Below are positions 11,501 through 17,500 of a stretch of 62,142 nucleotides of DNA, one piece after another (within the stretch, counting starts at the first letter, position 1; the number at the start of each line of letters is the position of its first letter). This DNA comes from Nitrospirae bacterium MYbin3 (GTDB lineage: Bacteria > Nitrospirota > Thermodesulfovibrionia > Thermodesulfovibrionales > Dissulfurispiraceae), in assembly GCA_002753335.1 (NCBI GenBank), contig PEAD01000017.1, positions 1-62,142 of the forward strand, written 5' to 3'. The position numbers are program-made.

Positions 11501-14500
11501 TTGTTATAAGACGCATAACAGAAGACCTAAATATTGGTGTCGATATTGTTGTCTGCCCCACCGTCAGGGAATATGACGGGCTTGCTATGAGCTCGAGGAA
11601 CGCGTATCTCAGCCCTGAGGAGAGAAAGTCTGCCGGAGCGATATACAGGGCCTTGCAGGCGGCGGCAGCGATTTTGAAATCCGGTTCGGGGACCGTTTCT
11701 GAATCGGTTTCTGCTATGAAGTCGGTTTTGAGTGCTGAGCCGCTTATTTCTGAGATTCAGTATTCCGGTATCTATGATCCGTTAACATTGGCTGAAGCTG
11801 TTGATGCAGGAAAAGAAAAACTGATTGCGGCTGCGGTGAAGATTGGACGTACGAGGTTGATAGACAACATTCTTGTCTGACGGTTTAGTAAAAAGCCCGT
11901 ATGCTGCGTTGCGCTTTTCCCCTTTTTACCGTACCGCTCCCCTCGATTGAGTTTCTAAAATCTTATGGCAGTTTGTACATCTTTTTCTTTTTACATGAGG
12001 AGATTTTGCGCCCCATGGTATCGGAGGTGCTTGTGCAATATTATTGGGAATCATTGCCTGCGGCTGCAACTCTGAAAGAGGTTCAGTAGCCTGAGGCTGT
12101 GCAATAGCTGTCTGTCCAAAGTTCCGGGTATCATACGGCCCGGGTGATACCTTGCCAGCAATGTTTGTGTAGGGGTGAGTGGAGTCAGAAAAGTTTTGCA
12201 TGGCCTCGCCCAGATGATGGCAAAAATTGCAGCTGTAGTCTCCGGCTGTGAACTGGGCAGCTCCAACAGGACATATGCGGTCAAGAGGCTTTGTCGGCCA
12301 TAGTCCTGCTACAAGTTGAGGGTATTGGGCATTACGGGCAACATTTCTTTCAACCGCATCTTTATCAATCTTGCCGGTGCGGTCTTTTTTTACCGAGAGC
12401 ACTCCATAAACGACAAGCATTGCGATAATAGCCATTAAAATATAGTTGAAAATTTTGTGAAGCATTTTAGCGTTTACACTCCATGGGATATTCTACCATG
12501 ATGTCAAGCAATTGAACTGAGGCCACTTATTTCCCGGTTTGTTGTTTTTTTTTCTTTGCCTTTTTGTCAGCATACATTCTCTTGTCAGCCTCTTTTAGTA
12601 CGGATTGGTAATCAGTCTTTTTATCGCAGGTTGCATGCCCGATGCTGAATGATAAAGAGTAGCTGACATTCTCAGAATTCTCTTTGTTCCATTTGTCGGT
12701 AGCCTTTAAAAGCCTCTCAACCATCTTTGCGGTCTTATCTTTGCCGGCATTTAGAATAACAAGGAATTCATCGCCGCCTAAACGGAATACAATGTCTGCC
12801 TTGCGAACAGTATTTTTGATTAGTTTTGCTGCCGTAATTATATACTGGTCGCCTATGAAATGCCCTAAGCTGTCGTTGACTTTTTTCATGTTGTCCAGGT
12901 CTATGACAATAAAAGAGAGCTGCTCTTCTTTACGCTCAGCGCTTGCAATCTCTCTTTCGATAATTTCATTGAAGAAATGTCTGTTATAAAGATCCGTTAA
13001 CTGGTCTTTCATCGCAAGTTCACGGAGTTTTATGGCTCTGTCCTGCAGATGGTAAATCAGAATGTCGATGTTCTTGAAAAGTTCGGTGGTTGGCTCCTTG
13101 TGATACATGGTAAATACATCACATTCGGAGCATGATGCATATTTTTTTGCGAACTCGCCCTGAACCTCTCCACGACACATAGTCCCGGCCTGAAGCCAGC
13201 AGCGATAATCATCGCTGTTATAGACAGGGCAGTCTTTTTTTGAGCATTTCTTGATCTCAAAACACCTGACTGTGTGCAGTTCATTGTGCAGGCTGCTCCA
13301 TTGTTTAACTTCCGAGGAAATCTCTATAGAGTGCTTGATAAATTTTTCTAGGTCGCTATTCATGCGGTGAAGAAAATCTTCACTCTCTATAGCCTCTTTT
13401 TTATAATCAGCTCCTTTCTTCACAATCCCCCCTATTTTTGGATATAGAAGATATTCTGTTTGCATGCAGCATTATTGTCAATTTTAAATTATATAACAGG
13501 TCTTGATTTCAGAAATTTTTCAAGCTTGCTGTTTTTAAATATGCCTCTATTTTCCTCGAACCCGGAAGTCAGCTCAGTATTTTCTAAAAAACATATTCCA
13601 GACAATGAAGTAGATTATCGGTGAAACAGAAACAAATGCATTCAAAAGAAATAACCTTCCTTTGATACCGCGAAATCTTTCCTTCAGACTTAATGCTAAA
13701 TTTAAAATGGACCATGCCAAGCCAAGTGTCATTACCAGATACATCTGTGGCGCATAGCCAAAAGGGCTCTCCGAGTATGTGTTGGCAAATACAATAACAA
13801 GTATTGGAACAAAGACTGCAACAACAAGACTTATTAGGGCAAAGATGTTCGTCATGGTGTAATTTTCTTCACCCGACCCACCGAACCGTCTGTCAGGCGA
13901 ACTTTTATACCGTGAGGATGCACAGCTGAGTTTGTCAGGATGTCTTTTACTATCCCTTCCGTAAGTTTACCGGTTTGCTGGTCTTTTTTTAATACAATAG
14001 AGACAAGCAGTCCAGCTTTGATATCAATACGCCTAGTGCCTGTCATTAAGTCACTATCCTATACTCACCTTTTTCTGCTGTTCGAACATAGTGATGATTT
14101 CGGACACGGTGTTTGCATCCACAGCTTTTTTATCCGTTCTTATAAAGCCTGTTGACCTCGGAAACCTAAGCGCATAGCCGATGCCGTCTTTATCTCTTCC
14201 GGCCGTATGCATTGGAGAACGGGTAAGTTCATCTGCCGTTACTGTTATTACATATTGTGGCTCAACCCAAACATCGGCTTTCATATCAGAGTCCACATTC
14301 TTGTGTTTATGCTTCAAGGCTATTTTGTCGAGCAAAGACTTTAATTCAATGAGCTCTTCGTCGCTGAAGCCCGAGCCTATTTTGCTGATTGTCTTGAAGG
14401 TTTCGCTTTTATTGTCATAGACCGCCCCTAAAATCCCGCCTATGCCGAACTTTGTCCTTGCTCCGCGTCCCACGAAATATCCTACAATGCAGACATCAAC

Positions 14501-17500
14501 AGTATCGGACAGTTCGCCCTTGTAGCTGCGCTTCAGTTTTATCCAGTTGAAGTTTCTGGCTCCAGCGGAATAGGGCGCATCAAGTCTTTTTGCAACAGCC
14601 CCTTCTAGTCCTCGCGCTATTGTATTGTCAAAAAACCTGTAGATGTCTGCCGGGTTTTCGGTTATCACCATTTCTGAAGGCTCAATAATGCTGTTTTCGG
14701 CAATAATAGCTTCGAGCTTGGCGCGCCTTTCGGCAAAGGGTCTGCCGGTGTAGTCTTCATCGTCAAGGAATAGCAGGTCGAACGCGAAGAATTTCAGCGG
14801 CAGCTCTTTCGATAGATCCTCAATTCCATGCTTTCTTTTCCTCTGAATCGTCACCTGAAAAGGCAGAAGCTCGCCGCTCTCTTCATTATATGCGAGGGCT
14901 TCCCCTTCTATGATCATTTTTTTTGCACAGACATATTTTATGATTGCGGCCGCTATTTCAGGGAACATATGTGTTGTCTTTTCGAGATTGCGCGAAAACA
15001 TATCGATTTTGTCGCCGTCTTTGTGGCACTGCACTCTAAAGCCGTCGTATTTGGCCTCTATTGCGGCCCTGCCCATTTTTTCGATGATATCTTCGGGCGA
15101 GGGCAGCCTTTCGCATAAGGCCATTCTTATTGGGTAGCCCACATTCACACGCATTTTTGCTATGCCTTCGATTCCTTGTTCGAGAAGTGTCCGGGCAACT
15201 AGCCCCAAGTCGCAGCAGATATTGTAAGCCCGCTCTAAAACCGGCCTGAGTTCCCGATCTCCGTGAGCGAGGGAGAGGGACTCAAGAAAGGTCGGGTCTC
15301 CGATGCCGAGCCTGAGCTTTCCGATAACCAGCCGCGCAATATATTTTGCTTCTCTTGACGACACACCCTTAAACAGGTTTGCAAGCATGCTGATTTTTCT
15401 CTCGACGCTTTTGGAACCACCTGTCATTGCTATATCAGTGAGTTCTTCATAAACCTGTCGGACGGTAAGTTCGTATCCTTTTCTTCCGTGCATCAGTTTT
15501 TCTGATACGAGTCCCATGTCACCGGTTTCTTTATAAGCCTGCTGGACTCTTTTTAGCGATTCATTAGAGGCTTCTGATATCGCTCGTTCTATAAGCTTTT
15601 CTGATATGCCTGTTTCTAGTCCGTGGAATGGGGGAAGGAGCTGCCCTTGGCTCAAATAGATTATCTTGTCGATATCTTCCGAAGAAGCTGACTTGAACAG
15701 TTCGGCAAGTATATCGAACATCTCAAGCCGTTTTGAAGTGGCCTCAAGCCGTTCAAAATATTCTGTCAGTGTCAGGAATTTCATAGCTTTATTGTGGAAC
15801 GCTGATGCGCTTTTAGCGTGCTTTATTTTCAACCGTTGATAGAGGTTTTGACGAGCTTTGGTATTACTACGATGCCCTTGGGGCTTATATGAAACATTTT
15901 TTTATCGTCTTCAGGGTTAAATCCTATGACGGTGTCTGGCGGAATGTAAACATCTTTATCTATTATAGCCCTTCTGATTTTTGCTCGTCTTCCTATCTCG
16001 ACATTTTCGAGTAGCACCGATTCTTCAACCTGCGCCCAGCTGTTCACCCTCACATTTGGAGAAAGCACCGAGTTTTTGACTCTGCCGCCGCTGATCACGC
16101 AGCCGTCGCATACGATAGAGTCGAGCGCGGTGCCCACTCTTCCTCCGTCGCTCTCCTGCGCAAATACGAATTTTGCGGGAGGGTGCTGGTAGGCGCGGGT
16201 TCGAATTGGCCATTTCTGATCATATAGGTTTAGATGAGGTTCAACCGCTATCAGCTCCATATTGGCTTCCCAGTAAGCGTCGATGGTGCCGACGTCTCTC
16301 CAGTATTTCGCCTCTTTTTTGTTTTCGTCCCTGAAATTGTGCGCAAATACCCTGCCTGTCTTTATCATATCAGGGATGATATCTTTGCCGAAGTCGTGTG
16401 CGGTCTGTTTTGATGCATCCATTTTCAGTTCCTGAATTATGCTTTCGGTGTTGAAAAGATACACGCCCATAGACACCAGGCAGTAATCAGGTTTGCCAGG
16501 TATGGTTTTGGGGTCATCCGGTTTTTCTTCAAAGCCTATGATTCTCCAGTCTTCGTCAACCTGCATAACTCCAAAGGCTTTCGCCTCCTCTTTTGAGACC
16601 TCTATGGCGGCAACTGTTGCCACAGCATTCTTAGAACGGTGGAAAGTGTACATTTCTGAGTAGTCCATCTTGTAAATGTGGTCTCCAGACAGAATGAGCA
16701 GGCAGGGCGGGGCTTCACGTTCGATGAAATAGATGTTTTGATATACGGCGTCGGCGGTGCCTGAATACCACCGCTCGTCAACTCTCTGCTGCGGGGGCAC
16801 GTTTATGATTATTTCCCCAAGTTCCGGAGAGAATAGATGCTCCCATCCGAGCGAAAGGTGTCTGTCTAGCGAAAGAGATTTGTATTGTGTGAATACCGCT
16901 ATCTTTCTGATGTTTGAGTTGATGCAGTTGCTGAGTGTGAAGTCTATTATTCTGTATTTGCCGCCGAACGGCACTGCAGGCTTTGCTCTGTGCAGTGTAA
17001 GTGGATGGAGGCGTTCGCCCTTTCCACCCGCAAGAACTATTGCCAGAACATTTTTCATCGAAGTTAAGCTGTTATCCTACGCCGAGCTCTTTTTTCAGCC
17101 GGTCTTTTATTTTTGTGTTGATAGGGTACATGCCGAAGCATCCTTTTCCCTTGCTTTCTTCCAGCGCCTCTGACAGGAGTTCGTCAGGCATATCATTTAT
17201 CTGCGCCAGCGTTTCGGCAAATCCTGCTTCGGTGTGGCGCATAAGGGAGAGCACAGGTTTGTCACCCATGGTGTCGATATAAAATATGTAGCCTTTCAGC
17301 GGCTCTTTTTTTATAAAGCCGTCGCAGGACGGGACGATTGAAGGCTCTGTCAGCTCTTTCGGTCCTGCATCCCATTTGATATGTTCTATTATGAAAGGCT
17401 CTTTTTTTATGTCTTCGAGTGTAAGTGGCTCTTCAGAAATCATTTTGCAACCTCCGCGTGTCGGTTAAAACTGCATTGCCTCCGGTCTTCTTTCGGGCAC

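Follow-up and report, generated by a model that had tools for sequence, protein, structure and literature searches.

A sole Cdc9/Lig I-type ATP-dependent DNA ligase, likely replicative, in a Nitrospirota genome and its relatives

Why bacteria use NAD for DNA ligation was called a long-standing question in a 2020 preprint, in which one exception is reported (10.1101/2020.05.11.089284), and high-light Prochlorococcus is the sole published case that we found in the literature of a bacterium relying on an ATP ligase. Prochlorococcus marinus, whose enzyme is AD-Lig P or Pmar-Lig (PDB 6rar), has, like the genomes described below, no complete LigA, and its ATP ligase lies at the position that ligA holds in relatives (10.1101/2020.05.11.089284). 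Reviews hold that bacterial replication relies on the NAD-dependent LigA, and bacterial ATP ligases are, in the words of one passage of a review, "in all cases" additional to the NAD ligase; a further passage places LigB with an Lhr helicase and a phosphoesterase (PMC7470946). For Dictyoglomus turgidum, the single ligase among the 85 genes of a manually revised replication and repair table is the ATP-dependent Dtur_0780, with no NAD ligase given; in the excerpts of that paper drawn on here it passes without comment, with "ligase" occurring once in the main text (PMC5167688).

The ligase of the window and its described counterparts

The stretch of DNA analyzed here (the window, 62,142 nucleotides) comes from Nitrospirae bacterium MYbin3 (G000) and encodes a ligase with the following features.

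14054..15784, minus strand: ATP-dependent DNA ligase, Cdc9/Lig I type, 576 aa, here "clade A" (translation, Pfam, TIGR00574, dN/dS)
15275..15778, minus strand: N-terminal helical DNA-binding domain, PF04675 DNA_ligase_A_N, aa 3-170 (Pfam)
14531..15118, minus strand: adenylation domain, PF01068 DNA_ligase_A_M, aa 223-418 (Pfam)
15035..15058, minus strand: motif I EAKYDGFR, aa 243-250, with the predicted adenylated lysine K245 (alignment)
14129..14446, minus strand: OB-fold domain, PF04679 DNA_ligase_A_C, aa 447-552, with motif VI GYALRFPR (Pfam, alignment)

The reading frame is intact in the translated window (576 aa plus stop), starts at the same methionine as its orthologues and has a dN/dS of 0.07 against the orthologue of the sister genome G081, which indicates purifying selection. 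Its product scores 446 bits against TIGR00574 dnl1 (cut-off 218); nucleotidyltransferase motifs I, Ia, III, IIIa, IV, V and VI are all intact, and E, K, D, G and R of motif I are invariant across the 119 rows of the clade A alignment. Judged by domains, score and motifs, the window ligase is a Cdc9/Lig I-type ATP-dependent DNA ligase, in line with the three-domain, 576-aa enzyme with KYDG (K245 in EAKYDGFR) described in the genome-wide survey's note. The label "archaeal-type" given there suits the fold family, but the closest sequences come mainly from bacteria, and none of the clusters could be named as an archaeal donor, taxon names being available for 4 of 20. With a GC3 of 0.50 the gene resembles its neighbors (0.46-0.53), and no viral-contig or phage relatives were found, so a mobile origin was rejected; plasmid matches were haloarchaeal only (29-30%).

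Archaeal replicative Cdc9/Lig I ligases have the same DB-NT-OB architecture over their full length and all catalytic motifs, and likely the same replicative job. Among PDB matches, the window ligase scores 464 bits to 2hiv, presumably a Sulfolobus-type ligase, versus 343 to 2cfm. The archaeal enzymes differ in their PCNA-binding loop: the loop near aa 100 of the DNA-binding domain is ∼12 residues shorter in the window ligase than in 2hiv and is without the motif seen there in 2cfm, at the place where we assume the archaeal PCNA-binding motif to lie. G000 encodes a bacterial β clamp, and no β-clamp motif was found in the window ligase, a motif-like stretch occurring among clade A sequences in family f17 only.

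Pmar-Lig belongs to an unrelated subtype (window ligase against 6rar, E about 2e-4 over a partial match). The two cases share a ligase that alternates with ligA at one position (here in f11, f13, f19 and Nitrospiria, but not in f1), although the Prochlorococcus case concerns one ecotype and the present one 126 genomes from at least two phyla, and the polarity in Prochlorococcus, in which ATP replaces NAD (10.1101/2020.05.11.089284), is opposite to that of the scars described below. LigB, as portrayed in part of a review, resembles the window ligase in its three domains, its proposed archaeal origin and its independence of Ku (PMC7470946). However, the window ligase falls below three LigB equivalog cut-offs (PRK03180, 246 against 641; PRK09247, 166 against 543; TIGR04120, 149 against 400), has other neighbors in place of the LigB cluster of Lhr helicase, metallophosphoesterase and exonuclease, and belongs to a clade lacking LigA in 126 of 130 carriers, whereas LigB accompanies LigA; identity with LigB was rejected on these grounds. 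A LigD/LigC end-joining ligase was likewise rejected, with a TIGR02779 score of 160 (cut-off 228) and no Ku in any of the five carriers searched, G000 included, as the survey had reported for G000. Dictyoglomus turgidum is likened to the window case from its published gene table only (PMC5167688).

Distribution of the two ligases

G000 (93.7% complete, 66 contigs) gave no match to PF01653 (LigA), a best E of only 0.22 in tblastn with three LigA proteins, and a single weak match to TIGR00575, which by its sequence is presumably UvrC-like. With PF01068, searched at E up to 1, one locus was found, the window ligase itself. The window ligase is the sole DNA ligase found in G000, and the survey was right on this point and on the missing LigA.

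Across the class Thermodesulfovibrionia (390 genomes; orthologues set at ≥52% identity to the window ligase), 44 genomes carry a clade A orthologue and 323 (83%) carry LigA; ten families have LigA alone. LigA is present in 2 of the 44 carriers versus 321 of the 346 other genomes, a near mutual exclusion spanning 12 families that upholds the earlier claim; Fisher p-values for this co-occurrence are overstated by kinship and were not relied on. The earlier counts of 46 carriers, 4 of them with LigA, are revised to 44 and 2, a difference for which G116 and G169 would account, both having LigA and only distant ATP ligases (31-34% identity). G037 holds both ligases, each in its native context. The sister genome G081 has ligA solely on a foreign 1.5-kb contig (63% GC), and the earlier caveat that it holds both ligases largely falls away. 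A full-length LigA model detected no LigA piece in 41 ATP-only class genomes besides G000, its two weak helix-hairpin-helix matches there being DprA-like and UvrC-like, and detected contig-end pieces in 4 of the 25 class genomes with neither ligase.

Outside the class, LigA was found in 0 of 36 clade A carriers versus 111 of 115 others in the Aquificota sample, and in 0 of 32 versus 70 of 79 in the Nitrospiria sample; the tally of all bacterial carriers gives 126 of 130 without PF01653, from at least two phyla, and over a hundred of these genomes are species-level ones. G398 and G434 apparently hold both ligases as well. Nine LigA-negative carriers, all outside the class, are single-contig genomes, which answers for that wider set the earlier caveat that no closed LigA-less genome had been tested, whereas none within the class is single-contig, the most contiguous being G110 (9 contigs, 94% complete). 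Each of the two single-contig Nitrospiria, G410 and G642, has a further, distant ATP ligase. Aquificota have a second ATP ligase of their own, clade B, which is archaeal-type, TIGR00574-positive, 40-43% identical to the window ligase and on a separate tree branch from clade A. LigA accompanies it in 29 of 31 genomes, and LigA pieces are present in the other two, so that it behaves as an accessory ligase. Clade B provides an internal control for the exclusion of LigA by clade A.

As a sole ligase in near mutual exclusion with LigA, the window ligase likely seals Okazaki fragments, a role already proposed for at least twelve families and now strengthened by the nine single-contig genomes, the second phylum and the control clade; reading from sequence and distribution, we consider a replicative role of clade A very probable. 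Were clade A instead a repair ligase, Okazaki sealing would fall to an unrecognized enzyme, either a divergent ligase or, in Aquificota, the TIGR01209 RNA ligase. Endonuclease V, an HhH-GPD glycosylase and DUF488 among the slot neighbors would suit such a role (these and DUF498 recur beside the ligase across the class), as would the second weak PF01068 match in all five of the seven single-contig Aquificota on which this model was run. Yet that match was an RNA ligase (TIGR01209) in both genomes checked, G000 has its one PF01068 locus, and the exclusion of LigA would be left unexplained, clade B showing no such exclusion; we hold this reading to be improbable. Scarcely credible is an artifact in which ligA went unassembled or mis-binned, so that the ATP ligase would be no more than a common accessory LigB. 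It could draw on the fragmented, 94% complete G000 bin and on the absence of PF01653 from 25 of the 346 genomes that have no orthologue, but LigA is missing from 7% of this background versus 95% of class carriers, 14 LigA-less class carriers are 98-100% complete, nine others are single contigs, and assembly gaps cannot produce slot swaps or scars.

Slots, scars and the direction of exchange

The aspS-rluB slot of family f11 holds the ligase in nine ATP genomes and in 7 of 8 examined LigA genomes, and ATP ligase and LigA also alternate in one slot at thiD (f19), hemC-DUF488 (f13) and metK (Nitrospiria); in f1 their sites differ. Three LigA genomes (G035, G237 and G244) retain the last codons of an ATP ligase, and no convincing case of the reverse scar, a ligA remnant in an ATP-only genome, was found; the scars speak only for the most recent exchanges, in two families. 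In all 10 ATP genomes checked, pncC lies within pgpA-pncC-thpR, and all 4 LigA genomes that could be read there lack it at the pgpA/thpR position. The gene is absent from 10 of the 44 carriers versus 20 of the 346 other class genomes; with 34 carriers keeping it, loss of pncC is weak as independent evidence that LigA was lost, and was set aside as such.

Monophyly of GTDB families within the class is compatible with the ATP ligase tree (ΔlnL 0.9, p-AU 0.49; all eight multi-member families) and is rejected for LigA (ΔlnL 233, p near 0), the taxon sets differing between the two; the RpoC control, on 51 of the 53 LigA taxa, retains it (p 0.53). Tested singly, f1+f10 monophyly in LigA was not rejected (p 0.28, ΔlnL 25); a separate set of per-split tests was set aside because its searches were too short (ΔlnL 131 for the same split). 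The full RpoC constraint is mildly rejected by the ATP ligase (p 0.014), indicating that it has moved too. Parsimony on RpoC is uninformative on the root state (19 versus 20 changes). ATP ligases are 59.9% alike between the class and Nitrospiria, whereas class LigA is no nearer to the LigA of Nitrospiria (45.5%) than to that of Aquificota (46.9%). The tree tests were made without the distant ligases of G116 and G169, the foreign LigA of G081 and G247, and a second, divergent rpoC contig of G178; some RpoC tests, including the full constraint and parsimony, were made without G080 (two rpoC copies), and parsimony without G049 (neither ligase). No rpoC match was found in G251, G234, G244 and G403.

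The survey had proposed repeated displacement of LigA by the ATP ligase, in which LigA would be the ancestral ligase of the class and its rival would have entered family by family. That order of events would accord with the prevalence of LigA in the class, its sole presence in ten families and its near-universality across bacteria, as stated in a passage of a review (PMC7470946). Parsimony is almost neutral toward it, the deep branches of the ATP ligase tree do depart from RpoC, and G251 and G252 have no pncC anywhere, as expected if a pncC-ligA state had reverted. Against it, the ATP ligase follows families where LigA crosses them, all three scars are ATP ligase remnants, the recA-type operon keeps pncC in ATP genomes, the RpoC-basal families f14, f15 and f17 are ATP-only, and the Nitrospirota ATP ligases form one clade. 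We regard an ancestral LigA as unlikely and think that the ATP ligase probably came first within the class.

The account that we favor as a whole, with fairly good confidence, is that of a sole Lig I-type ligase, likely replicative and ancestral in the class, with LigA as a likely later arrival. K245 would be adenylated by ATP and AMP passed to the 5′ phosphate while the three domains wrap around the nick and close it, as in the family generally, so that one enzyme would seal both Okazaki fragments and repair nicks using ATP. The pattern of exclusion suggests that a cell needs one replicative ligase and that two are redundant. LigA would have arrived laterally, replacing the inherited ATP ligase in most lineages, and ligA would usually enter with pncC, encoding an NMN deamidase that clears the inhibitory by-product of LigA, after which the ATP ligase and the recA-operon pncC would be deleted; G037 would represent this exchange caught midway, and G035 its outcome. 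Whether this archaeal/eukaryotic-type ligase was replicative in the ancestors of Nitrospirota and of a large Aquificaceae lineage, possibly also in those of Dictyoglomus, Thermoflexus, Omnitrophota and some Patescibacteria, with LigA and pncC an invader still displacing it, we judge to be evenly balanced.

Consequences and the site in family f1

LigA serves as a universal marker of bacteria and as a drug target, an assumption that fails in these groups: 126 genomes, nine of them single-contig, break the LigA rule with a full Lig I-type enzyme. The reason why bacteria use NAD can be tested directly on sister species that differ only in the slot ligase and on one genome with both, and a Hydrogenobacter-titled record among the carriers suggests that cultured material is likely within reach. 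How a ligase of PCNA lineage works in a β-clamp replisome also becomes askable. If the ATP ligase is ancestral and LigA the invader, the NAD/ATP split would be a swappable slot and not a fixed bacterial-archaeal boundary.

In family f1 the ligase site has the order glgC-(DUF488)-ligase-panC, and its two markers are present in the window.

15829..17058, minus strand: glgC, glucose-1-phosphate adenylyltransferase, upstream neighbor and left marker of the f1 ligase site
11038..11880, plus strand: panC, pantoate ligase, right marker of the f1 ligase site

Three genes separate panC from the ligase in G000, where the neighbors of the ligase are glgC, a 93-aa ORF and a GGDEF gene. The end of glgC lies 44 bp from the ligase start, a gap that makes co-transcription of the two likely.

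The ligase and its host genome

The window carries two ORFs of concern here, and the second of them lies, together with a GGDEF gene, in the interval between the ligase and panC.

14054-15784, minus strand: ATP-dependent DNA ligase, 576 aa
11926-12465, minus strand: 179-aa ORF with a magnetochrome domain match (PF18509, 30.7 bits, barely above the cut-off)

The ligase matches the Pfam domains PF04675, PF01068 and PF04679, the only NCBIfam cut-off that it passes is that of TIGR00574, and the closest solved structure is the archaeal ligase 2hiv (464 bits over the full length). Its sequence places it in the Cdc9/Lig I family. 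In the clade that it forms with its closest relatives (clade A), the catalytic motif residues are 87-100% conserved (119-row alignment), and the dN/dS of the ligase is 0.04-0.11 in five pairs. It scores under the cut-offs of the NCBIfam models for LigB and for NHEJ ligases. It is neither a LigB as defined nor of the Pmar-Lig type.

The genome-wide survey's note held that this is the only ligase of the genome (G000) and that the NAD-dependent LigA is absent, and both statements stand. The PF01653 profile found no match in G000, TIGR00575 found no genuine match, tblastn with LigA found no trace, and there is a single PF01068 locus. Ku was not found in G000, and its DnaN is normal. A replicative role in its host is thus likely, and in the way it works the ligase would resemble the exceptional Prochlorococcus enzyme and the replicative ligases of archaea. 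The Prochlorococcus enzyme was claimed as the first exception (bioRxiv 10.1101/2020.05.11.089284), and bacterial ATP ligases are said in a passage of PMC7470946 to be additional to the NAD ligase in all cases. The portions of PMC12133292, PMC2806865 and PMC10140301 that we consulted hold no further bacterial case, and in a passage of PMC5167688 the ATP ligase is the only one listed for D. turgidum. Our literature search found no such case published for Nitrospirota or Aquificota; subscription papers, including a 2016 survey that the reviews cite, and supplements lay outside its scope and may mention such genomes.

Distribution of the two ligases

At a threshold of at least 52% identity, an orthologue of the ATP ligase is present in 44 of 390 Thermodesulfovibrionia genomes, spread over 12 families. 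G116 and G169 hold distant ATP ligases only, which would explain the earlier count of 46. PF01653 is found in 323 of the 390 genomes, namely in 2 of the 44 carriers versus 321 of the 346 others, and the two ligases are, as had been claimed, nearly mutually exclusive. Fourteen carriers without LigA are 98-100% complete. A search with a full-length LigA model gave no LigA piece in the 41 ATP-only genomes of the class besides G000, and gave pieces at contig ends in 4 of the 25 genomes with neither ligase.

The presence of both ligases in the sister genome G081 had been raised as a caveat, which now largely loses its force. Its ligA is the lone gene of a 1,473-bp contig of 62.7% GC (49% at other G081 loci), and its product is 42-46% identical to the LigAs of the class, which average 71% among themselves, and branches outside them; it is likely a binning contaminant. 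In G037 both ligases are present, each in its native context, and the ATP ligase is under purifying selection. Separately, second rpoC copies in G178 (C87, L235; 55% identity) and G080 (C203, L227; misplaced in the tree) suggest contamination of these bins.

Of 435 related loci, 80 were retained. The search outside the class covered 50 genomes (47 bacteria, by record title mostly Nitrospiria or Aquificaceae, plus 3 archaea), of which 2 have LigA. We also sampled 151 Aquificota genomes, which share their phylum with a Hydrogenobacter record, and 111 Nitrospiria genomes, which share their class with a Manganitrophaceae record; both centres were picked as gene carriers, and the samples overlap the set of 50. 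Clade A (48-60% identity) occurs in 36 of the 151 Aquificota genomes, none with LigA. A more distant ATP ligase, clade B (40-43%), occurs in 31, with LigA in 29 and LigA pieces in the other two, and LigA is found in 82 of the 84 Aquificota with neither clade. Among the Nitrospiria, LigA is present in 0 of 32 carriers versus 70 of 79 others. With each genome counted once, PF01653 is absent from 126 of 130 bacterial carriers. The pattern is real and broader than first stated. Two Nitrospiria genomes hold both ligases (G398, L151; G434, L152), and their LigAs sit on long branches, separate from most Nitrospiria LigAs, which may reflect contamination or recent gain.

Nine carriers outside the class consist of a single contig, and TIGR00575 found no match in any of them; two are Nitrospiria and seven are Aquificota of 1.4-1.8 Mb. 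The only other PF01068 match of these Aquificota is weak (5 of 5 tested) and represents a TIGR01209 RNA ligase (2 of 2 checked); both Nitrospiria have an additional distant ATP ligase. In G666, a genome without LigA, a frameshift near aa 350 interrupts the clade A ligase (C1:284430-286149, L424); it may be a genuine break or an error of sequencing. In G456, an Aquificota genome of 1.5 Mb, two models found no LigA, and a search with the query gave nothing at E 1e-20.

Shared slots and the direction of replacement

In several groups, ligases of either kind occupy the same chromosomal slot. In GTDB family f11 the ligase directly follows aspS-rluB in all 9 ATP genomes and in 7 of the 8 LigA genomes examined (of 11), with a DUF498 or HhH-GPD gene next wherever the locus extends that far. 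It follows thiD in three ATP genomes and one LigA genome of family f19, and hemC-DUF488 in one of each in family f13. G253 reads DUF488-ligA-DUF498 where G019 and G339 read DUF488-ATP ligase-DUF498, and in Nitrospiria metK is adjoined by either kind. One ligA in the f11 slot (G247:C301, L046) is only 38-43% identical to the LigAs of the class, yet lies with a local-type pncC, so it is likely a second ligA, of foreign origin, that took over the position of an earlier one.

For 40 of 54 genomes of the class, the ligA locus as retrieved includes pncC. In 10 of 10 ATP genomes checked its site is pgpA-pncC-thpR, and in the four readable LigA genomes pgpA-thpR has no intervening pncC. Passages of PMC3680494 and PMC3855486 place pncC in recA operons and describe its removal of NMN, a LigA inhibitor. 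In G000 pgpA abuts thpR (C14:6041-7030, L425), which indicates a clean deletion of pncC, and PF02464 found no gene anywhere in the genome; G081 keeps pncC.

The survey's note had the ATP ligase displacing LigA, a polarity that is likely reversed, given three ATP-ligase scars and tests of family monophyly. G035, 100% complete and with LigA only, is congeneric with the ATP-only G036 and the two-ligase G037. Its locus reads glgC-DUF488-panC, where the ATP ligase has been lost except for a mutated start and the final 16 codons, 14 of them residue-identical to G037. In G237 and G244 (2 of 53 loci tested) the final 10-12 ATP-ligase codons persist between ligA and DUF498, with scores of 62 and 65 versus shuffle maxima of 27 and 33; this tail is conserved in clade A members without a DUF498 neighbour, and the remnant is therefore ligase-derived. 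The mirror test for ligA scars at 41-42 ATP loci gave one A-rich match (score 33) and nothing convincing. Hence, in at least three recent events, LigA took over from the ATP ligase.

For the deeper polarity we infer the same direction. Trees were built for RpoC (103 rows), the ATP ligase (128) and LigA (81). Of the strong RpoC splits, 17 of 23 are recovered by the ATP-ligase tree and 11 of 29 by the LigA tree; the strong splits in conflict number 1 of 18 and 5 of 16, respectively. When GTDB-family monophyly is imposed, the loss is 0.9 log units for the ATP ligase (p-AU 0.49, 44 rows) and 233 log units for LigA (p near 0, 53 rows), and the RpoC control accepts the constraint (p 0.53; first 670 columns, 51 of the LigA taxa). 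Running counter to this, monophyly of f1+f10 taken alone is not rejected for LigA (p 0.28), the full RpoC constraint is mildly rejected by the ATP ligase (p 0.014), and parsimony hardly separates the alternatives (19 versus 20 changes).

Relatives of clade A

In a 130-row tree clade A (support 0.96) unites Nitrospirota, one Aquificota group, Thermoflexus and a few archaeal records, nested in a wide group distant from the euryarchaeal-type ligases. Micrarchaeia, Patescibacteria and Clostridia records form the neighbouring branches, and no donor was found in this tree. The carriers titled Methanocellales also hold euryarchaeal-type ligases, so clade A is an extra copy there; their records (L096, L097, L402-L413; G391, G392, G673) have 3-4 ATP ligase genes each, and the clade A copy lies near an Nre repair gene. 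All four ligases of family f17 (L058, L059, L061, L062; in G006, G007, G009, G008, respectively) have an insertion of 15 residues whose core is [ST]LF, at about aa 105-120, in the loop that serves archaeal ligases for PCNA binding, and the insertion resembles a beta-clamp-binding motif.
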